Below, piece by piece: positions 25,901 to 39,564 of a stretch of 64,000 nucleotides of DNA. Source of the DNA: a virus. The stretch lies in the UHGV virus genome UHGV-0073881; one strand, given 5' to 3'. The translations under genes were made by a program, and so were the position numbers. How positions within the stretch are numbered: position 1 is the stretch's first letter; each line of letters starts with the position of its first letter. The notes beneath the pieces were generated by a model. That model did no database searches. It was not told the origin of the DNA and was given only the letters and a program-made list of their open reading frames with translations.

Positions 25901-27004
25901 TTATTCATAGTCTCGAATAACTAACCCAACAGGGAACTGTAAAGACCCCTTGCGAGTCATCTTCTGGAACTGAACCGTTAAAGGTTTCCCGATAAACTCT
26001 TCAGGGTGTTCAGCAAGATACTGTTTCTTCTCATGGGTAGTTTTCCATGAAACATCTACAAAGACATTTGGAAGTGTCTCTACAACAAACTTACCATGAC
26101 CCCGCTTATCGGTCTTCACACCAGTAATTTTAAACTCCTCTGTGTGCATCTTCTTATGTTTAATCAGGAAGTATGAACGGTGACCACACTCATAGAAGGA
26201 CTCTGGAGAGATTGAGCGGTACATTGCACCTTCAAACTTAGCTTCAACCCACTTATCATGAGCTTCATCAAACTCTTCCCAAGAATTTACACGACGAGAT
26301 TTAACAGGGACAACTCTACAGCCATCTCTAAAGTCATTCAATGGTGAAGTCTCAATAATACTTCTACGCTCAGGCCATGTCTTAGTGCTGTCACAGATAT
26401 CATACCAGTAAAACTTGAGTAAATGTCGGTCAGGATTGTCTTCATTTTTAATCATGGAGACAATATCTTCTAAGTCCAACCCATGAGCATAGATTTCACC
26501 ATCAAATTCATCAACGTCTTTATGGAGCCTCAACATTGCCATAATGTCAGGTATTAGCTCAGTAGGAATTTTATAAATAGTGTTCTCACGAGAATATGCT
26601 GTAAATACACTGCCAATACTTAAGTGTCTTGAAATCCTACAACGTACACCATCCAGTTTTGGTTGAGCATCAGCAGGAAATTTCAGATACTTTGCATGAC
26701 TAACCTTTGCAGCATCATGAGCAAGCTGTACACCTACCTTCTCAGTATTCTGTGCAGACTCTTTTGTGTAAGCGTAACCTTTACGGTCTACTTGTTTCTT
26801 GTACTTAGCAGAAACTTCAAAGAGAGCTTGCTGTTCAGCATTACGCTCATTCTTTTTACCGATGTTCTTAGGCTCTGCTGTGTACTCTTCAAACATCATC
26901 TTGCCATTTTCTTTACCGTAGGTTGTAACCACCTTATCACCTACAGCAACACACGACCAAACGTTAAAAGAGCCATCTTTATTTTGTTTGTACAGAATTG
27001 TCAT
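25901..27004 (-). CDS. ATP-dependent DNA ligase
   Basis: 367 aa with adenylation motif KxDGxR (PKLDGVRC) and a ligase-like downstream region. Confidence 0.85.
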   Translation of the reverse strand: MTILYKQNKDGSFNVWSCVAVGDKVVTTYGKENGKMMFEEYTAEPKNIGKKNERNAEQQALFEVSAKYKKQVDRKGYAYTKESAQNTEKVGVQLAHDAAKVSHAKYLKFPADAQPKLDGVRCRISRHLSIGSVFTAYSRENTIYKIPTELIPDIMAMLRLHKDVDEFDGEIYAHGLDLEDIVSMIKNEDNPDRHLLKFYWYDICDSTKTWPERRSIIETSPLNDFRDGCRVVPVKSRRVNSWEEFDEAHDKWVEAKFEGAMYRSISPESFYECGHRSYFLIKHKKMHTEEFKITGVKTDKRGHGKFVVETLPNVFVDVSWKTTHEKKQYLAEHPEEFIGKPLTVQFQKMTRKGSLQFPVGLVIRDYE

Positions 27005-28788: not shown

Positions 28789-31494
28789 TCAATGTACTTC
28801 CAACCAGCTCTTACCAACCTTACCAGTACCTGTAACCATAGTTTCTTTTCTTAGACCAAGGTTTTTAGAAGCCTGCCCGTACATCCAGTCAGTGATAGCT
28901 TTAACCTCTTGAGTCATACTTTCTGGACATTCCCAACTATTTTCATCGTGATATGCCAGAAGAAGTCTAGCTCCAATAGCTGGCTTACGTCCATTCAGCT
29001 TCATCAACCCTTCATCATAGGCTCTACGACATGCAAGGTTAATTGCTTCATTCTGTACTTGACTTTCTGAACCCATCAAAAGGTAATTTAACAGCTTGTG
29101 TGGAGACTTACACCATAACCAAGCTCCAGCAACCTTTACAAAACCCCCTTTAGAGATTGCAGCAGTCTTACCAAAGACCTCTTCAAGAGCCTTCTTAGTC
29201 GCTTTAAAGTCAGCTTCTAAGTTATCAATCAGTTTCTTAATCTTCGGCAAACGAACGAAGTAAGTCTGTTTAGTCAATGCACCCTCCTGAGTAGTTGCTG
29301 CTTTAATGGTCTTAGCAAACTTCTCATCCCCTGCACCAAACAGCAGTGCATAGATGCCATTCTTAGCTTTCTTACGACCTTTACTGATTTCGTGAAGAAG
29401 ATTTTCATCCTGAGTCATACGACAAGTCAAGATATCCTGCTCATCATTCAAGCTGAAGTAGATACTGTTCAGTGTGTGAGCATCAGTGCCTGAGTAAACT
29501 ACGTACAAGTCGTTTTCAGAGTCATAACGCAGATACTTGTCAACCTCTGGATTCAGGTATTCGTCAAAGTGTTTGCAGTAGTAGCGACCATCTTCTTGAC
29601 GAACAAATTCAATCTCTTCTTTACCTTCGGTTACCGCTTTGGTGAACTCTTTATCACCCATAAAGTTACACAGTAAAACAAGCTGTGCAGAGTTCATATC
29701 CACAGAGACTACGTTGGTTCCCTTCTCACAAATCCAAACTGCCCTCATTGGTTCACCATAAACAGCAGCACCGGAAGGTACGTTTACAATACCATACTGT
29801 GTCATACGTCCAGTGGATGTACCAAACACCATTGCACCAGCACTTAAACGACCATCTGGACGAATCTGATTCAACCAACCTTTCTCATCATCCTTTGAGT
29901 TCTCAATAGTTCTGCGTCGGTGCATCAAAGTATAGTACTTCGCAATCTTCTGCCCAAGTTCACCTTCGATAGTGTCATAAGAAGATTCAGTCAGTTTTGG
30001 TGAAGTACGAATCAAGCAAGGTTCAAGAACATCTGTGTATTTCTTCACAGACCAATTATGCTCGATGTACTGTACCCCTTCATGCTCAACGTAGTTTAAA
30101 CCACAACGTTCAACCATTTCATCCCACTTAGGATGTTTACGAATCATCTTCTTATTATCTTTGAAGCGACAAACCTTAACAGGACGACCATCTGAGTCTT
30201 TCTTGTAGTTCCAATCATCAGGAATCCAACCAACAGATTTCAGATACTCTTTAACTACTGCAACCTGAGTCATGCGTGAAACTTCAAACTCAATCGGTGT
30301 ATATGGTGCATCAATCAAACCCGTGTAACGACTTGACTCAAGTTCAAAGTGATTAACAACATGATTGTTGTAGTACTTGACAATCTTAACAGTTTTAACT
30401 GGCTTCCAATCTTTGCACTTCTTGTCAACCTTCGCATTTAGCTCATTACATACTGCACGAGCATCTTTCATTGCCACGAAACCTTCTTTGTACTCTTCTC
30501 CGGTTACCGTGTTAGTTGGTGTGTAGCAGTTACGTTTCTCTACGCTGAAAATCTTGGTAGTTGGTTTACCAAATGGCTTAATAGGATAACTTTGCATTTC
30601 CCCATTACGAACCTGCTGACGATACTTTGTCTTAGGATACTTGGTAATACGTTTCAAACCATCTGCTTCACCAAAAGTTTCAACATACTCATTCCAAGCT
30701 TTTGCAAATTCTTCACCAGTAACTTTCCCTTTTGTCTTGATAGTTGGTGGTAAGAATGGCTCAACCTCTGAAGCAAGGTCAGCAGTCATCTTATCAAGTT
30801 CTTTAACACAACTCTTCATCATGTTAATGTCAGCTTTCCAACCATTGATAGCTTGCTGGCTCATCCAGAAAGATGTTTCTTTAGCTCGCATGTAGGTTTC
30901 GTAGGTATCCACACCACACTTCTTCAGCTTCACATACTCATTATCAAGAGCACGTTTAGTTTTGGCGTTGATTCGAATATCTTCAACAACACGAGTTAAG
31001 ATTTCAGCGTTCCAAACTCCCCACTCTTCAATCTCAGGCTTACGGACACCAACACGAGCACCCCATGCAGCCAAACCATGAGAACCCTTGTAACCTTTCG
31101 GTGTAGGTCTATCCATCCACTGAACACGAGATTGGATAAGTGAATCTTGGAAGAAATTACTCCAAGGCTTACATTTAGGGTTATCAAAGTTCCACAGGTC
31201 AGGTGCAATGTGGTTGAACACCCACCAGTCATAACCAAGACCGTTGTGAATGCAAAGACGTTTCGCCTTTAAAGCAAACTCAACACCCTCTCTTAAGCCA
31301 CCCTTGATATACTTGGTGTACTTGTGACCAAGAATAGGCTCATCAGTGAATACCCACACAGGTGGTTCATCACTGTCATCTTTGTAATCTGCAAAAGCCA
31401 TTACGTGAGCTTTAGTGAACTCAAGCAGCAATCCGTCAGTTTCTGTATCGCCTACCAGATGCAAATTTTTAAAGTCTACGTTTTCCATTTTCAC
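28789..31494 (-). CDS. DNA polymerase, family A, with 3'-5' exonuclease domain
   Basis: 901 aa; Exo I-like DTETDGL; motif B-like KNGIYALLFGAG; motif C HDE (LAYHDENSWE). Confidence 0.9.
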   Translation of the reverse strand: MKMENVDFKNLHLVGDTETDGLLLEFTKAHVMAFADYKDDSDEPPVWVFTDEPILGHKYTKYIKGGLREGVEFALKAKRLCIHNGLGYDWWVFNHIAPDLWNFDNPKCKPWSNFFQDSLIQSRVQWMDRPTPKGYKGSHGLAAWGARVGVRKPEIEEWGVWNAEILTRVVEDIRINAKTKRALDNEYVKLKKCGVDTYETYMRAKETSFWMSQQAINGWKADINMMKSCVKELDKMTADLASEVEPFLPPTIKTKGKVTGEEFAKAWNEYVETFGEADGLKRITKYPKTKYRQQVRNGEMQSYPIKPFGKPTTKIFSVEKRNCYTPTNTVTGEEYKEGFVAMKDARAVCNELNAKVDKKCKDWKPVKTVKIVKYYNNHVVNHFELESSRYTGLIDAPYTPIEFEVSRMTQVAVVKEYLKSVGWIPDDWNYKKDSDGRPVKVCRFKDNKKMIRKHPKWDEMVERCGLNYVEHEGVQYIEHNWSVKKYTDVLEPCLIRTSPKLTESSYDTIEGELGQKIAKYYTLMHRRRTIENSKDDEKGWLNQIRPDGRLSAGAMVFGTSTGRMTQYGIVNVPSGAAVYGEPMRAVWICEKGTNVVSVDMNSAQLVLLCNFMGDKEFTKAVTEGKEEIEFVRQEDGRYYCKHFDEYLNPEVDKYLRYDSENDLYVVYSGTDAHTLNSIYFSLNDEQDILTCRMTQDENLLHEISKGRKKAKNGIYALLFGAGDEKFAKTIKAATTQEGALTKQTYFVRLPKIKKLIDNLEADFKATKKALEEVFGKTAAISKGGFVKVAGAWLWCKSPHKLLNYLLMGSESQVQNEAINLACRRAYDEGLMKLNGRKPAIGARLLLAYHDENSWECPESMTQEVKAITDWMYGQASKNLGLRKETMVTGTGKVGKSWLEVH

Positions 31495-32985: not shown

Positions 32986-33010
32986 AGCCTCCTTAATTGG
33001 GGGCTTTTTA
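32986..33010 (+). terminator. rho-independent terminator
   Basis: AGCCTCC-ttaatt-GGGGGCT stem-loop (one G-U pair) followed by TTTTT. Confidence 0.55.
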
Positions 33011-33027
33011 TTATGGAGAGGTTGAGT

Positions 33028-33768
33028 ATGAAAAGTATTATTGCATTCACTGGTAAGGCTCGTTCTGGAAAAGACACTTCCTGTACTCTGGTAAGAAATG
33101 CCTTGACTGAGAAAGGTTACAAAGTTAAAGTTTTTGCGTTTGCAGATAACCTTAAAAACACTGCTGGAGATATCTTCAACCTGACTTGGGAAGATTTGTA
33201 TGGAGACACAAAAGAAACTCCACAGGTCTTCACACTGACTCATTCAGCATTATCTTCACAGGTTATTTGGGCTTTTTACAGACACATGCAAGATAAGGAT
33301 ATCCACAAGGATTTAAAGCTGTGTGGTGAATTAACCGACAAACTAATCAAAGAATTGAAAAAGGTTGGTAAACCGACATTACTCACCAGACTCGGCTTGC
33401 GTAATGAATATAAAATCTCTTCACGTCAAATCCAACAAGTTTGGGGAAGTGAAGTTGTCCGTAAAATCTTGGGTGAAAGGTTCTGGATTATTGACTTAGC
33501 AGAACGCATGGAGAAGTTCTTTGGTGAATGCCATACAGAAGACCATGAAGGTATTGCACTAATCTGTGATTTAAGATTTGACATTGAGGCTGAGTTTCTT
33601 CAAAGTTATGACAGTAAAATCATTGAGGTGAAGAGGGACAATACTACACAAGTTGCTTCACATCATTCTGAGAAAGGTATTTCAACCTTGTTTGAGCGTG
33701 ACATTATTCAAAACAATGGCACAATGGATGAGCTTGAAAGTAAACTAAAAGCTATCATTGGAATTTAA
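33028..33768 (+). CDS. putative deoxynucleoside monophosphate kinase
   Basis: P-loop AFTGKARSGKDT near the N-terminus; start set at ATG 33028 (GGAGAGG 6 nt upstream) rather than track start 33013, which lies in the terminator T-run. Confidence 0.5.
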   Translation: MKSIIAFTGKARSGKDTSCTLVRNALTEKGYKVKVFAFADNLKNTAGDIFNLTWEDLYGDTKETPQVFTLTHSALSSQVIWAFYRHMQDKDIHKDLKLCGELTDKLIKELKKVGKPTLLTRLGLRNEYKISSRQIQQVWGSEVVRKILGERFWIIDLAERMEKFFGECHTEDHEGIALICDLRFDIEAEFLQSYDSKIIEVKRDNTTQVASHHSEKGISTLFERDIIQNNGTMDELESKLKAIIGI

Positions 33769-33976
33769 AAAGAGAGATATTAAGATGAGAGTAGATAATT
33801 TAAAAGTAATTGACCACCGTTCTGTAGAACTCTCATCTCTTTCTAAGGAAGTAATGATGGAGCGACTTGAAAGGGTCACTTCACGAAGGAAAGAGATTGC
33901 TGAAGAAATTCATGAACTAGACAAGATTGAAAATGGTTTAAAAGCTGAACTGCAACGTAGAGGTGCTAATGTCTAA
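33758..33976 (+). CDS. hypothetical protein
   Basis: 72-aa coiled-coil-like ORF. Confidence 0.4.
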   Translation: MEFKKRDIKMRVDNLKVIDHRSVELSSLSKEVMMERLERVTSRRKEIAEEIHELDKIENGLKAELQRRGANV

Positions 33977-35954
33977 AGGTCGTAAATTGAAAGAGGCTGG
34001 TCAGTTTGTTGGTCACTGTGCATGTCCTAAGTGTGGTTCATCAGATGCAGGGTCTATCTATCATCATGACGATGATTCTTATTCGATGACTTGCTTTAGC
34101 TGTAACAAAGGGTTTCCAGAGTGGGATTTTGATAAGGGTCAGATTGTGAGCACATATTCTACAGGTTCTGATAATAATAGCCGTACTTTCCGTGGTATGG
34201 ATTTAGATGAAGTAAAAGAGAACCTTGAAGCAATGGATTTAAAAGACAGGAAGATTCCTGCAAAGGTTCTTGAACGTCTTGGTATTAAGGTTGACATTGA
34301 TGAAAACGGTGATATTGACGCTCACTTTTACCCAACTTATAAGAAAGATGAAAATGGGAAGCTGAAGCATGTTGGTTATCGTGTTCGCCACAAATACCCT
34401 GAAGACCATCCTAAAGAGCATCTTCGTGGCAAGTTAAAAGACTTCTCAGGTGGTGTAGGAGATATTAAAGGTGAACTGGCTATGTTCGGTTCATGGATTG
34501 CTCCAGAAGGTGGTAACCGTCTTTTCATTTGGGAAGGAGAGATGGAATGTGCTACAGCAATCTATATGACTTCTTTGGCAATCAAAGATAAGTCACGTAG
34601 AAAGAATTACTGTCACGTTTCTGTACCATCTGGTGCAAACATTAAGTCTATCAAAGAAAACTATCAGTACATTACATCGTTTGATGAGATTTACCTGTGC
34701 TTTGATAATGACGAAGCTGGAGCCAAAGTAACTAAAGAAGCTGCTGGTATTCTGCCTATTGAGAAGGTTCGTTTATTCCAGTACCCAGAAGGTGTTAAAG
34801 ACCTTAGCGAGTGGTGGACTAAATTCTTCAAAGACAAAGATACAGTCCTTGAAGGGTTTAAGCAGAGAATTTACAATGCACCTCGTTACTGCCCTGCTGG
34901 TATCAAGAACTTCGCAGATGGTTTTGAGGCTATGAAGAATCGTGGTCAGATTCCACTGATTCCCTTCCCAGATTCCTTCGGAGACCTTAACAGGTTGACT
35001 TATGGAGGTTATGGCTTAGGGGAAATTACAACTCTGGCTGCACCATCTTCAGTTGGTAAATCTGCATACACTCGTGAAATGATTTACACAGCTTGGAAAG
35101 AAACTGACTACAATATCGGTGTAATTCCTGTGGAAGACACCTATGAAGAGTTAATGGAAATGCTCTGTGCAATTCACCTGAGTAAGCAGATTTCAGAAAT
35201 TAATTATGATGAACGGGATTGGGATGAAATCAAAGTTGCACATGCTGAGTTGTCTGCTGGTCGTCGTATCCATATCGTTGACCACCAAGGGGCAATTGAC
35301 CAAGACAACCTTCTAGAGTTTGTTGACTATCTGGTTAACAGTCTAGGTTGCAAGATTATTATTCTTGACCCTATTACGTTGGCACTGTCACGTTCTGATA
35401 CAGATGAAGAAGAAGTTCTGTCTGAGTTACTTCGTCGTTGTAAGCGTTATCAATACGCTCAAGTAAACGTCTGTCACGTTCGTAAGAGTGCAGGTGGTCA
35501 GAAAGCTAACTCTGAAGGTGGAGATATCTCTGAAGAGGATATCAAGGGTTCTGGTGCATACTTCCAGATTTCTATGAACAACATTCTGTTAATGCGTAAC
35601 AAGGTTGACCCAGACCCTGTTAAGAAAAACTTGACTAAAATCAAGTTAACAAAATGTCGTCGTCATGGTAAGTCAACTGGTATTGCTGGTCACACTTGGT
35701 ATAACCCAGATACAGGTCGTCTTATCAAGGCTGCTGGTAGTGGTGTTGATATTGACGGTGCAGCAGAGAATATCCGTCAGCAATTTGGTATCGGTGAACC
35801 GGAAGACCACTATGATGATTCTATGCCACACTATGAAGATGGAGACTTTGACAAAGATACTGGTGAAATCTACACTGAAGAACAACGTCAAAGTTCTACC
35901 ATTCCACCTGTGATTAATGAGGATGATGATGACTGCCCGTTTGAAACTGAATGA
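33963..35954 (+). CDS. DNA primase/helicase (T7 gp4-like)
   Basis: N-terminal zinc ribbon (CPKCGS ... CFSCNKGF); TOPRIM-like acidic motifs (EGEMECA, FDNDEAG); DnaB-type Walker A (APSSVGKSAYT). Confidence 0.85.
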   Translation: MLMSKGRKLKEAGQFVGHCACPKCGSSDAGSIYHHDDDSYSMTCFSCNKGFPEWDFDKGQIVSTYSTGSDNNSRTFRGMDLDEVKENLEAMDLKDRKIPAKVLERLGIKVDIDENGDIDAHFYPTYKKDENGKLKHVGYRVRHKYPEDHPKEHLRGKLKDFSGGVGDIKGELAMFGSWIAPEGGNRLFIWEGEMECATAIYMTSLAIKDKSRRKNYCHVSVPSGANIKSIKENYQYITSFDEIYLCFDNDEAGAKVTKEAAGILPIEKVRLFQYPEGVKDLSEWWTKFFKDKDTVLEGFKQRIYNAPRYCPAGIKNFADGFEAMKNRGQIPLIPFPDSFGDLNRLTYGGYGLGEITTLAAPSSVGKSAYTREMIYTAWKETDYNIGVIPVEDTYEELMEMLCAIHLSKQISEINYDERDWDEIKVAHAELSAGRRIHIVDHQGAIDQDNLLEFVDYLVNSLGCKIIILDPITLALSRSDTDEEEVLSELLRRCKRYQYAQVNVCHVRKSAGGQKANSEGGDISEEDIKGSGAYFQISMNNILLMRNKVDPDPVKKNLTKIKLTKCRRHGKSTGIAGHTWYNPDTGRLIKAAGSGVDIDGAAENIRQQFGIGEPEDHYDDSMPHYEDGDFDKDTGEIYTEEQRQSSTIPPVINEDDDDCPFETE

Positions 35955-36207
35955 GTGTTATCTGAAGGAGGGTTTCACGCCCTTCTATTCAGAAGAGACT
36001 ACTAAAAAATTCGCAAAAGAGTGCTTGACTAAGATTGAACAGTTCGCTAAAGTACTCATCAACAAGGGGCACGATGTTACTTTTGAACATGAAAGCCGTA
36101 AAGATAAAGACTTGTTTGCACTGTCAATTGACAAAGCTGATACAATTTATCTTTTCACCTTGACTTTAAAAACATTTGAATATGAAATATATCGGAGCAC
36201 AAAATGA
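35917..36207 (+). CDS. hypothetical protein
   Basis: 96-aa ORF overlapping the primase-helicase 3' end. Confidence 0.45.
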   Translation: MRMMMTARLKLNECYLKEGFTPFYSEETTKKFAKECLTKIEQFAKVLINKGHDVTFEHESRKDKDLFALSIDKADTIYLFTLTLKTFEYEIYRSTK

Positions 36208-36341
36208 AACACTCTAAAGCATTTGAAGCAGTATTTGGCGATTCCATGAAAGCAACTGCTGGTAAGTCTGCTGCACATTATGAAGCGAAGCGTGTACGTA
36301 CTGGCAAGACTGCTCGCAAAGCTGCTAAGAAAGCTGCTTAA
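36204..36341 (+). CDS. small basic Lys/Ala-rich protein
   Basis: 45 codons, below the ORF-track cutoff; ATGA start/stop overlap with upstream ORF; CGGAG 6 nt upstream; K/A-rich C-terminus. Confidence 0.4.
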   Translation: MKHSKAFEAVFGDSMKATAGKSAAHYEAKRVRTGKTARKAAKKAA

Positions 36342-36347
36342 AAAGAT

Positions 36348-36376
36348 TTGACAAAGGAGTATGAAGTCTGTAACAT
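36348..36376 (+). promoter_or_regulatory. sigma70-like promoter candidate (TTGACA-N17-TAACAT)
   Basis: hexamers upstream of the SSB-like gene; spacer contains a short hairpin. Confidence 0.35.
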
Positions 36377-36428
36377 TGTACTCCTTCGAGTTTGAGTTAA
36401 AAGTTTAATTGAGTAAAGAGGTATTAAA

Positions 36429-37271
36429 ATGTCTAAAGTTGTTAAAATGAAATCTCCGGTAGAAAAGTACAACGGTCAAGAGCGCGAGACAATGCGTTAT
36501 CTGCTGAAAGATGTTTGGTTCTACTACCTGAACACTATTCCACGCCCGGGAAAAGGTAAGTCAGTAGATAAGAAATTCCCAGGCAAAGATTGCAACTACA
36601 GCGTTTCAATTCTTGCAAAGGATGGTAACAAGCTGTTTAAAGAGTTTACCAAGACCAAGAAGAGTCCTGAAGGTTGGGATAAGGTCACCACTGAAGTTGT
36701 TGATGCAGATGACTTTGAAGAAAAATTTGGTTGTGAGCCTCCATTTGAAGCTGACACCTATCACATCTTGAAAGTTAGTCGTGCTGCTGCTTACAAAGAT
36801 GGTGCTGTGTGGACAGCTAAACAGTCTTTCCCTGTAAGTCTGATTGAAGAAATTAACGGGAAGCGTGTTGCAGTTAAGCAGCCTATGAAGAAAATCAAAG
36901 CGCTTAAATCTGATAAGCACGAAGATGATAAGAACTATGACGTAGTTCACCCAGACATTGCAGTTGGTAACGGTTCTTTTGGTAGTGTTATCTTGGCAAC
37001 TCACTTCTACACATTTGAAGGTGCTGTGTTGACGAAACCAATTCAAGAGCAGTTTATCATTGATACTCTGGTTCCGTACACTGGTGGTACAGGTAGCAAC
37101 TCTGATACTGAACTGGATGAAGACGAACTGGCAATGCTTGGTCTGGATGGTGTTGAAGATAATGGTACTATCACTGAAGAAGAACCTACAGAAAATGATG
37201 GTGACGACGACGATGATGACCTTCCAACTCCAGACGACGATGACGACGATGACTTTGATACTGAAGAATAA
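36429..37271 (+). CDS. putative single-stranded DNA-binding protein with acidic C-terminal tail
   Basis: 280 aa; sits between primase-helicase and 5'-3' exonuclease; C-terminus DDDDDDLPTPDDDDDDDFDTEE recalls the acidic, Phe-containing tails of T7 gp2.5-type SSBs. Confidence 0.45.
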   Translation: MSKVVKMKSPVEKYNGQERETMRYLLKDVWFYYLNTIPRPGKGKSVDKKFPGKDCNYSVSILAKDGNKLFKEFTKTKKSPEGWDKVTTEVVDADDFEEKFGCEPPFEADTYHILKVSRAAAYKDGAVWTAKQSFPVSLIEEINGKRVAVKQPMKKIKALKSDKHEDDKNYDVVHPDIAVGNGSFGSVILATHFYTFEGAVLTKPIQEQFIIDTLVPYTGGTGSNSDTELDEDELAMLGLDGVEDNGTITEEEPTENDGDDDDDDLPTPDDDDDDDFDTEE

Positions 37272-37288
37272 TCGTTAAAACTAATACT

Positions 37289-37317
37289 AAGCCCTGTACT
37301 ATGTATGGGGCTTTTTC
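37289..37317 (+). terminator. rho-independent terminator
   Basis: AAGCCC ... GGGGCT stem followed by TTTTT. Confidence 0.5.
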
Positions 37318-37331
37318 GTATGGAGATTAAA

Positions 37332-38378
37332 ATGGAAAAGTATACACTTACAAAACTCCCAGATACTGTGACACACGTCTTTATTGACTCTGATAGCATT
37401 GCCTATAAAGGTGCTTGTGTAGTTGAGAAAGCAAAGTACAAGTATGTGAACAAAATCACTGCTGAAGAGTCTGAAGGGTTTGACAGTGCAAAGCTTGCTA
37501 ATCAATGGTTGTCAGACCAGAGAACTTTGACAGAAGAACTTGGCCTCAGCTTTGATGAAGATGAATGGGAAAGACAAACTTGGAAAGAAGCTAAGAGTGA
37601 AAAAGAAGCTATTATGGCAACTCAACAAGTTCTTCAAGAATGGTTGAAGGTTGTCGGAAAAGAAAGACATTGGGAAGGTTACCTCACAGAGAAAGGTGTT
37701 CACAAACACAAAGACATTAAAGGTCTTGAACATCAATACCAAGGTAACAGGAAAGATGCTGTAACACCAACGCACCTAGTTGCTTGTCGTGAGTATCTTC
37801 TGTCACGACCAGAGTTTAAGCTTTTAAAGGGAGGCTTTGAAGCTGACTCTATTGTAATTGCCAAAGCTGAGAAGATGGGTAAAAAAGCTGCATTGATGAG
37901 TATTGATAAAGACCTTCGTCAAGCTGAAGGCACATACTGCATCGATATGACTTATGAGAAAGCCCCATTAATCTTTATCGCTGATGGTAATGTGGGAGAG
38001 ATTTGGGATTGTCCTATCAAATCTAAACCAAAAGCTAAGAAGACGGTTGGAGTAGGCTTCAAATTCCTCTGCTATCAAGCTGTAGCAGGTGATAATGCCG
38101 ATAACTACTTTGGCCTTAAGGGTGCTGGTAAAGTTGCTGTAATGAACGCTCTGGAAGGTAAAACAACCTATAAAGAGTGTCTTGATGCAATCTATGAACT
38201 GTATGCTAAGAAAGACTCTTACACATACGTATCGTGGGACGGTGAAACAATTACAAGAACACCTCTTGAGTTGATGGAACAACATTTCTTCTTAGCATAC
38301 CAAGAGCGAAACAAATCAGATGACTTCTCATTTGAAAAGTATGGTTGGACTCCAAATGTTGACTCAGCAGACACTTAA
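37332..38378 (+). CDS. 5'-3' exonuclease / flap endonuclease
   Basis: helix-3-turn-helix-like motif AGDNADNYFGLKGAGKVA characteristic of FEN/5'-3' exonucleases; start set at ATG 37332 (GGAG 6 nt upstream) since track start 37305 lies inside the terminator. Confidence 0.7.
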   Translation: MEKYTLTKLPDTVTHVFIDSDSIAYKGACVVEKAKYKYVNKITAEESEGFDSAKLANQWLSDQRTLTEELGLSFDEDEWERQTWKEAKSEKEAIMATQQVLQEWLKVVGKERHWEGYLTEKGVHKHKDIKGLEHQYQGNRKDAVTPTHLVACREYLLSRPEFKLLKGGFEADSIVIAKAEKMGKKAALMSIDKDLRQAEGTYCIDMTYEKAPLIFIADGNVGEIWDCPIKSKPKAKKTVGVGFKFLCYQAVAGDNADNYFGLKGAGKVAVMNALEGKTTYKECLDAIYELYAKKDSYTYVSWDGETITRTPLELMEQHFFLAYQERNKSDDFSFEKYGWTPNVDSADT

Positions 38379-38856
38379 AGAGTATCTTCATTATGACCCC
38401 GAAACAGGGGTCTTTACTTGGTTGAAGAAATCGGCTAATAGGACAGTCATTGGTTCAGTTGCTGGAACACCCCATAAAAGGGGCTATATCAGGATTACCA
38501 TAAAGAGAAAATCATACATGGCTCATGATTTAGCCATTCTTTACACAGAGGGATTCTTACCAGACCGTGTAGACCATCGTAACGGAATTACTAATGACAA
38601 CCGAAGAATGAACTTGAGAGTTTGCACTCAAGCTGAAAATTGTTGGAATAGAAAAATACACTCCAACAATACATCTGGCGTAAAAGGTGTATCATTCAAC
38701 AAAGCTTCACAGAGGTGGAGAGCAAGGATTATGGTTCACGGTGTAACACATTTCCTTGGTCTGTTTGACAATGTTGATGATGCCAAAGAAGCAATTAGAA
38801 AGAAAAGAGAAGAACTTCACAGAGAGTTCACAAATCATGGAGAAGCTTATGAATGA
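38356..38856 (+). CDS. HNH homing endonuclease with AP2-like domain
   Basis: HNH motif (VDHRNGITNDNRRMNLRVCTQAEN) and AP2-like C-terminus; paralogue of the ORF at 28266..28778 (shared YDPETGVFTW); start at internal Met aligning with paralogue, track start is 38320. Confidence 0.65.
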   Translation: MLTQQTLKEYLHYDPETGVFTWLKKSANRTVIGSVAGTPHKRGYIRITIKRKSYMAHDLAILYTEGFLPDRVDHRNGITNDNRRMNLRVCTQAENCWNRKIHSNNTSGVKGVSFNKASQRWRARIMVHGVTHFLGLFDNVDDAKEAIRKKREELHREFTNHGEAYE

Positions 38857-39353
38857 AGATTAAAGGTTTTGGCAATTGCCCTGAATATGGACATTGGATT
38901 TCACTGTGCGGGGAAATTGACCCCGCTAAGTATTTTGGATTTGTTTACTTAGTATACTGTAAAAAGACTGGACAGTATTATTTGGGAAAGAAACAGTTTA
39001 ACAATGTCTCTAAAAAGAAAGTAGCTGGAAAGACCAGACGTAAAGTTGTCACCAAAGAGAGTGACTGGCTGACGTATCAGACTTCTTCGGAGTACATTAA
39101 GAAGGATATTGAAACTTTTGGTAAAAAAGAGTTTGACTTCTACATTGTGCAGCCTTACTATACGCGAGGTGGATTGGTCTACGGAGAAGCCAATTTACAA
39201 CATAAGTTTGACGTCATGACAAAAAGGATTGACTCCAAGCTTCGACTCTTCTACAATGCGAATATTGCAGCTATCAAGTTTCTTACGAAAGAGACTTATG
39301 AAGATGCAGAGAAGAGAATCCATAAAATCATGAAACTTAATGAGAGAGAATAA
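38853..39353 (+). CDS. putative GIY-YIG homing endonuclease
   Basis: N-terminal FVYLVYCKKTGQYYLGKK resembles GIY-(10-11 aa)-YIG; basic C-terminal region. Confidence 0.45.
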   Translation: MKIKGFGNCPEYGHWISLCGEIDPAKYFGFVYLVYCKKTGQYYLGKKQFNNVSKKKVAGKTRRKVVTKESDWLTYQTSSEYIKKDIETFGKKEFDFYIVQPYYTRGGLVYGEANLQHKFDVMTKRIDSKLRLFYNANIAAIKFLTKETYEDAEKRIHKIMKLNERE

Positions 39354-39564
39354 AATGTTTAAATCTATCAAGAATGACCACCAAGCTAAAATTGAAGCTG
39401 GCTTGGACAACCTGAAGACGGTAATTGCAAAGGCTAAAGAAGCCACCGAAACAGAAATGGATGCTCTGGAATCACAGATTCAGCATCTAATCAACAAACG
39501 TGTTGAACTGAAAGCCCGTCTGGATTATATTGTTGCTAAACAGGAACTGTTTCAGGAGGTTTAA
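39340..39564 (+). CDS. hypothetical coiled-coil protein
   Basis: 74-aa ORF. Confidence 0.4.
   Translation: MRENKMFKSIKNDHQAKIEAGLDNLKTVIAKAKEATETEMDALESQIQHLINKRVELKARLDYIVAKQELFQEV

Follow-up and report, generated by a model that had tools for sequence, protein, structure and literature searches.

A candidate T7 gp2.5-class single-stranded DNA-binding protein and a neighbouring small-gene cassette in the replication module of a Felix-O1-like phage

The replication locus and the 280-aa protein

The window analysed here is a stretch of 64,000 nucleotides of the virus genome UHGV-0073881, and the subject of this study is a gene at 36429-37271 (+ strand) that codes for a 280-amino-acid (aa) protein with a strongly acidic tail, together with the two small open reading frames (ORFs) that precede it. 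The gene is located in a T7-type replication module containing a gp4-like primase-helicase, a family A DNA polymerase, and a gp6-like exonuclease, an arrangement that is kept in relatives. Upstream of it lie, on the same strand, the gene for the primase-helicase (663 aa; 33963-35954), a 92-aa ORF (35929-36207; 96 aa if read from the ATG at 35917) matching PHROG 4982 ('unknown function'), and the gene for a basic protein of 45 aa (36204-36341; PHROG 4424). The exonuclease gene (37332-38378, + strand) follows. With a probability of about 0.8, we consider the 280-aa protein to be the replicative SSB of this phage (a protein that binds single-stranded DNA, ssDNA), belonging to the T7 gp2.5 class as a divergent representative whose tail would dock on partner proteins, and the 45-aa and 92-aa genes to form a separate accessory cassette.

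A previous sequence-only reading of the window had described the product of the 280-aa ORF as ending in two aspartate runs, and these runs, of 6 and 7 residues, are present as described in a C-terminus that reads ...NDGDDDDDDLPTPDDDDDDDFDTEE. The oligonucleotide/oligosaccharide-binding (OB)-fold core corresponds to aa 1-220 (36429-37088) and the tail to aa 221-280 (37089-37268); the last 60 residues include 30 D/E and no K/R, giving a net charge of about -30. A word-indexed protein search retrieved just 13 close relatives. An exhaustive comparison of a hidden Markov model (HMM) built from 12 family members with 1.84 billion proteins yielded 57 relatives at E <= 1e-3, most of them 200-245 aa long and carrying acidic tails with PF, DW, or DWE ends. 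Acidic tails with ends of this type are a hallmark of T7-type SSBs. Seven of the ten relatives tested (200-230 aa) matched both PHROG 3877 and PHROG 112, the latter described as 'Gp2.5-like ssDNA binding protein and ssDNA annealing protein'. With a 56-sequence profile, the window protein included, T7 gp2.5 (1JE5) was matched at an E of 8.8e-8 and the DUF2815 structure 4JG2 at an E of 0.09, and the profile alignment placed the family-invariant Y194 on T7 Y158, an aromatic residue that is conserved in the cleft where DNA binds. By tblastn, the gene was found in 302 phage records, 44 of which form a divergent group with less than 60% SSB identity that includes Erwinia phages. No SSB of the Escherichia coli type was detected: there was no Pfam SSB match, and phmmer with E. 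coli SSB as query gave a best E of 1.6 in the six-frame translations of the window and of the Erwinia Kolesnikvirus phiEa104; neither the window nor the complete phiEa104 genome contains a second gp2.5-like ORF.

A structure of the 280-aa protein was predicted with AF2. The model obtained with the 56-sequence alignment had a mean predicted local distance difference test score (pLDDT) of 84, and one obtained with a 12-sequence alignment (mean 46) was discarded. In the retained model 207 residues reached a pLDDT of at least 90, with blocks of 85-98 over aa 1-210 and values below 50 in the tail. In a Foldseek comparison with the PDB, the nine best matches all belonged to the gp2.5 family and were the only strong neighbours, the named viral ones among the structural neighbours being 'DNA helix destabilizing', 'ssDNA-binding', or 'DUF2815' proteins; the predicted core was closer to gp2.5 and Enc34 than to other OB folds. 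Compared with T7 gp2.5 (232 aa; about 15% identity), the window protein has a beta extension at its N-terminus, an additional stretch inserted around aa 129-175, and two short helices in place of the long helix A. Identity was 10-15% with the Enc34 ORF6 SSB of an Enterobacter phage (5ODJ/5ODK/5ODL; PF10991) and with DUF2815 proteins (4KLK, 4JG2). The tail, disordered elsewhere, includes a conserved segment, ELDEDELAMLGLDGV (aa 231-236; 37119-37136), which was predicted as a short helix and may be a second interaction motif, separate from the terminal F-x-T-E.

Per-gene fitness values are available from a genome-wide knockout screen (PhageMaP) of the Felixounavirus Bas63, in which, by the scoring of its authors, values below 0 denote essential genes (bioRxiv 10.1101/2024.10.10.617714, supplementary file 3). 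The Bas63 gene numbers were mapped here onto GenBank MZ501086 and the window: g52 is the primase-helicase (94% identity), g53 the 92-aa ORF (36%), g54 the 45-aa protein (78%), and g55 the 280-aa protein (87%). In host S17, g55 scored -0.78/-0.82/-1.17 and g52 -0.77/-0.89/-1.00; in the second host sheet the values were -2.15/-2.07/-2.43 and -2.30/-2.09/-2.28, respectively. By contrast, g53 scored +1.14/+1.32/+1.18 in S17 and +1.10/+0.93/+0.97 in the second sheet, and g54 +0.51/+0.79/+1.32 and +0.72/+0.67/+0.37. Two defence-panel sheets repeated this pattern for g52-g55, save one negative g54 replicate (-0.36). By these values, g55, the SSB ortholog, equals the primase-helicase g52 in essentiality, and g53 and g54 are dispensable in laboratory hosts. 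After a BLASTp search, the screen authors labelled g55 'DNA helicase/primase*', which is probably a mislabel.

The same data bear on the possibility that the 280-aa protein is mainly a single-strand annealing recombinase and not a replisome SSB. Gp2.5-like proteins have been placed among the recombinases, and annealing in vivo was shown for two remote homologs (PMC2896510); moreover, the gene adjoins that of a 5'-3' exonuclease, a typical recombination pairing. However, SSB and annealing roles coexist in T7, neither the window nor its completely sequenced relative phiEa104 yielded another SSB candidate, and the essentiality of the gene in the Bas63 screen equals that of the helicase and the polymerase. 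In addition, its tail is common to the replicative helicase (see below), and the long alpha-helix said to mark gp2.5 annealases (PMC2896510) is replaced in the model by two short helices. We consequently regard a predominantly annealing function as unlikely, and favour the replicative SSB.

Acidic tails of the candidate SSB and the primase-helicase

The tail of the SSB is acidic and disordered (low pLDDT) and ends in DDDDDDDFDTEE. Downstream of the second Asp run, it carries the sequence F-D-T-E-E (37254-37268, + strand), a putative docking motif of the type aromatic-x-Thr-acid. The sequence-only reading had placed a phenylalanine in the penultimate position; the aromatic residue is in fact F276 of 280, fifth from the end and within F-x-T-E. 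Both F276 and T278 are unchanged in all 12 family members, and the variants found in relatives (FETD, PFKTE, WETE, FQTE, and WRTE) have the same general form. The primase-helicase also has an acidic C-terminus, ...NEDDDDCPFETE (35916-35951), and among the 571 stop-to-stop ORFs of the window the combination of an acidic tail with aromatic-x-Thr-acid was found only in the SSB and primase-helicase genes.

Comparison of the ends of both proteins in several lineages revealed matching pairs: PFETE in the helicase and DFDTEE in the SSB in the window, PFETD and DFETDDE in the Mooglevirus Michonne, IPFRTE and VPFKTE in phiEa104, and GFETN and DWETE in the more distant contig L009. The correspondence is weaker in contig L008 (GFVTA and DFETE) and in the Yersinia phage P778 (QFSTT and EFETD). 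In a remote clade of IMG/VR contigs (loci L048-L081), gp2.5-like SSBs of about 147 aa end in ...DADDEDVL and the adjoining gp4-like helicases in ...MEGMML, Leu replacing the aromatic residue (pair MEGMML and DEDVL). By this comparison the helicase and SSB tail ends co-vary across lineages, with the exception of locus L045 (GEVLS and EWETN).

In T7, gp4 ends in DTDF and gp2.5 in DGDF. The T7 gp2.5 tail contacts a frontal basic patch of the polymerase, and a DTDF peptide of the gp4 tail has been seen bound to gp5 in PDB 6P7E; in addition, the gp2.5 tail and ssDNA compete for the OB cleft (PMC12339929; PMC10359462). Since the T7 gp2.5 and gp4 tails bind gp5, the SSB and helicase tails of Ounavirinae, the subfamily of Felix-O1-like myophages, may by analogy dock on the family A polymerase of the phage. 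The T7 system thus suggests a mechanism in which the SSB core would coat ssDNA of the lagging strand and of recombination intermediates, the tail of free SSB would fold back onto the DNA-binding cleft, and its aromatic-x-Thr-acid end would dock on the family A DNA polymerase. Because the primase-helicase bears the same end (PFETE versus DFDTEE), both proteins would share a single docking site, with a hand-over at the fork. The window resembles the T7 gp4/gp2.5 pair in that helicase and SSB have the same acidic-plus-aromatic end, which changes in step across lineages. It differs in that the motif is aromatic-x-Thr-[Asp/Glu] followed by up to three more acidic residues, the aromatic residue being the last one in T7, and in that the SSB tail is far more Asp-rich.

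Several observations weigh against the gp2.5 assignment or against tail docking. No Pfam family, PF10991 included, matched the 280-aa protein at E <= 0.1, and among ten distant relatives only one (P0024) touched PF10991, below threshold (E 0.006). Unlike the seven relatives mentioned above, the window protein matched only PHROG 3877 ('unknown function') and not PHROG 112 directly, and a search of PDB sequences with the family-only profile gave nothing meaningful. That profile was also weak against the single T7 gp2.5 sequence (hhalign probability 19%), so that the homology rests on intermediates and on the predicted structure; the profile alignment covers the C-terminal half of gp2.5 alone. 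As for the structure, TM-scores (template modelling scores) were modest, 0.38-0.56 on target, and the N-terminal extension and the insertion have no counterpart in solved relatives. The polymerase basic patch was not located, the alignment with T7 gp5 being too poor, and the docking geometry must differ from that of T7 given that the aromatic residue is not C-terminal. Finally, PhageMaP is noisy, and T7 genes 5 and 4A appeared non-essential in it (bioRxiv 10.1101/2024.10.10.617714).

Another reading is that of an OB-fold protein with a different job, e.g. an acidic decoy that mimics DNA and counters host nucleases or defence systems, the resemblance to gp2.5 being fold-level only: the protein matches no curated family model, its tail is unusually long and Asp-rich, and OB folds serve many functions. 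However, sequence intermediates connect it to PHROG 112 and 1JE5, and the gene is essential in plain laboratory hosts, unlike typical counter-defence genes, which makes this reading extremely improbable. The proposal of an SSB made in the sequence-only reading is supported by transitive profile homology, the structure model, the gene context, the helicase-like tail, and the essentiality of the Bas63 ortholog.

The 45-aa and 92-aa genes and the expression signals of the locus

The 45-codon ORF that precedes the SSB gene codes for a product that, with its stop codon, reads MKHSKAFEAVFGDSMKATAGKSAAHYEAKRVRTGKTARKAAKKAA. It had been reported in the sequence-only reading to have a good ribosome binding site (RBS), to overlap the upstream gene, and to specify a highly basic peptide rich in Lys and Ala. 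Inspection of the ORF confirmed these features: GGAG is located 6 nt upstream of the ATG, the ATGA at 36204-36207 is shared with the TGA of the upstream ORF, and the product contains 9 K, 3 R, 12 A, and 3 D/E, with an isoelectric point (pI) of 10.6. It matched PHROG 4424 ('unknown function') with an E of 4e-27. The ratios of non-synonymous to synonymous substitution rates (dN/dS) against five relatives were 0.05-0.23 for the 45-aa gene; the SSB gene gave 0.07-0.29 and the upstream 92/96-aa gene 0.3-0.6. The low values of the 45-aa gene rule out a non-coding ORF and indicate that it is a real coding gene under purifying selection. A profile search gave 24 clusters of the protein; the long contigs among those that carry them measure 80-90 kb, as Ounavirinae genomes do, and all phages named among them infect Escherichia or Yersinia. 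The conserved core is SKAF..VFG.S..AT.GKSA.HY..KRVRTGKTARK or, with alternative residues shown, [FY]S.AF..VFG.S..AT.GKSA.[HY][FY]..KR[VI]R.GKT.[RK], and the Lys/Ala-rich end is variable (KNKAK, DHRK, and KDKHNFQ).

The 45-aa gene is always found downstream of a fast-evolving gene of 92-117 aa, with overlapping stop and start codons, and both occur together in Michonne, wV8, SUSP2, Silverhawkium, P778, L008, and Bas63. In phiEa104, the SSB gene is directly downstream of the helicase gene, with neither small ORF in between, and a six-frame profile search of its 84.5-kb genome did not find the 45-aa gene (best E 2.4, compared with 1.8e-30 for the window). By tblastn, the 45-aa gene was present in 255 phage records, none of them of an Erwinia phage, and the SSB gene in 302, the gap corresponding largely to the divergent 44-record group that includes the Erwinia phages. 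These results indicated that the 45-aa and 92-aa genes, coupled in translation, make up an accessory cassette that part of the subfamily carries as an insertion between the genes for helicase and SSB and, judging from its sequence features, the cassette is coding sequence of the expressed type. The 96-aa protein had no match in Pfam. The 5' end of the 92-aa gene overlaps the helicase-tail codons, the start used in relatives being the equivalent of the ATG at 35929. The codons for the helicase tail (EDDDDCPFETE; 35917-35954) double, in another frame, as those for the next gene's N-terminus (MRMMMTARLKLNE), and since the same codons are read in two frames, helicase tail and small-gene N-terminus would be mutually constrained.

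The spacer of 87 nt between the 45-aa gene and the SSB gene contains a predicted sigma-70-type promoter, TTGACA-17 nt-TAACAT (36348-36376, + strand). Its -35 and -10 hexamers are kept in Michonne, Silverhawkium, SUSP2, wV8, Bas63, and P778 (Mooglevirus, Suspvirus, Felixounavirus, and the Yersinia phage P778), and in phiEa104 the promoter is slightly degenerate (TTGCAA). The SSB gene has a strong RBS, and directly downstream of it there is a predicted intrinsic terminator on the same strand (37289-37313), with an 11-bp stem followed by a T run; Michonne and wV8 have a terminator annotated at the corresponding position. Because of the predicted promoter upstream and terminator downstream, the SSB gene looks like a self-contained, strongly expressed unit, and such a unit would suit a protein made in stoichiometric amounts and agree with the absence of polar effects from insertions in g53 and g54.

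Around the -10 hexamer, an 8-bp inverted repeat, AAGGAGTA...TACTCCTT, was also observed (36355-36387, + strand). An alignment fold of the repeat gave 8 pairs, 4 of them with two-sided pairing-preserving changes, and G-U pairs on the + strand; its arms are altered in wV8, P778, and phiEa104, with the pairing preserved. The single-sequence fold was modestly better than shuffles (z -1.9). The repeat could be a hairpin confined to read-through RNA from the helicase operon, or a DNA operator.

In the sequence-only reading, the small gene was presented as coupled with the SSB gene, and its product as a possible partner of the SSB, either histone-like or regulatory. The first of these views did not hold, the 45-aa gene being coupled to the upstream 92/96-aa gene and separated from the SSB gene by the promoter-bearing spacer. 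A dedicated partner could act by binding the poly-Asp tail and regulating the availability of the SSB or helicase tail, or as a histone-like DNA binder together with the SSB. Such a role would be in keeping with the adjacency of the genes, with the opposite charges of the two products (pI 10.6 versus a tail with 30 D/E and no K/R), with the strong purifying selection, and with the conserved KRVRTGKTARK segment. However, phiEa104 has no 45-aa gene in any frame and yet keeps the SSB and its tail motif, and the distribution of the 45-aa gene in phage records is narrower than that of the SSB gene. The conserved promoter separates both genes, and the Lys/Ala-rich end is not conserved. The 45-aa protein of the window had no match in Pfam (among six family members, a single one gave an unrelated match, E 0.086), its best match in the PDB sequence search was insignificant (E 0.18), and neither Pfam nor PDB sequences related it to histone-like or nucleoid proteins or to any other family. 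Since the gene is missing from phiEa104 and from the Erwinia-phage records, and g54 is dispensable in Bas63 whereas g55 is essential, an obligate partnership is unlikely, and a dedicated SSB partner of either type very unlikely.

Our best guess, made with low confidence, is that the 45-aa and 92-aa proteins have a joint accessory, condition-dependent role. A more elaborate version would have an Ounavirinae-specific docking code (aromatic-x-Thr-acid) on helicase and SSB, and the two small proteins as a conditional tail-binding modulator that retunes the hand-over under particular host or defence conditions; we consider it very unlikely. g54 was not among the defence-panel hits discussed in the text of the Bas63 paper.

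Annotation status and genomic neighbourhood

The fold, the tail principle, and the tail mimicry between helicase and SSB are already known from T7. What is new is the assignment to the gp2.5 class of PHROG 3877, a subfamily-wide and unannotated family, together with the aromatic-x-Thr-acid variant of the motif and its co-variation with the helicase tail. The assignment would complete a T7-like replisome in a myophage, and the SSB identity of PHROG 3877 would explain the essentiality of g55 in Bas63. Published comparisons of Felix-O1-like phages list polymerase, ligase, primase-helicase, and exonuclease, and no SSB (PMC8300805). No earlier report of an SSB in these phages was found in the literature searched, which did not include the tables in the supplements to Lopes 2010 and Kazlauskas 2016, where Felix O1 might be listed. 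In the GenBank records examined among the 302 matching ones the SSB gene is 'hypothetical'; its ortholog in P778, ORF081 (L003 4216-5067), is labelled 'methyltransferase', which is probably wrong, and the sole naming as SSB is an automatic UniRef entry for the SapYZU01 ortholog ('Single-stranded DNA-binding protein'). Typing, biocontrol, and therapy all make wide use of Felix-O1-like phages. Overall, the result is a useful annotation. The co-varying tails are also a natural experiment on the recognition of the polymerase by acidic tails, for which tail-swap and point-mutant designs are directly testable.

A megablast search with the region 35900-37400 matched 227 phage records, led by Shigella and Citrobacter phages of Mooglevirus and then by Felixounavirus. 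Since the best of them are 82-84% identical, the window is by sequence part of a new species-level member of Ounavirinae. Gene order is identical in the records of relatives, where the three small or unclassified genes are all annotated as 'hypothetical protein'. The gene of the primase-helicase (Pfam Toprim_2 and DnaB_C; 28% identity to T7 gp4 over almost its full length, E 1e-44) is preceded by a 72-aa ORF (+ strand), and this by a deoxynucleoside monophosphate (dNMP) kinase gene (33013-33768, + strand). Upstream, on the opposite strand, are located the genes for the family A DNA polymerase (28789-31494; 901 aa; Pfam DNA_pol_A, E 1.6e-14; 22% identity to T7 gp5, E 6e-13) and for an ATP-dependent ligase (25901-27004). 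An Rfam scan of 33000-39500 gave nothing relevant.

The exonuclease, similar to T7 gp6, matched PHROG 107 'exonuclease' with an E of 1e-63 and is annotated as exodeoxyribonuclease in relatives. Its longest ORF begins at 37305, within the terminator hairpin of the SSB gene, and the start used in relatives (MEKYTLTKL) corresponds to 37332, with GGAG before it. Two homing-endonuclease genes follow in tandem: an HNH+AP2 one (38320-38856), whose start overlaps the 3' end of the exonuclease gene by 59 nt, and a SegE-like GIY-YIG one (38853-39353). At this position, Michonne and SUSP2 contain the GIY-YIG gene alone.

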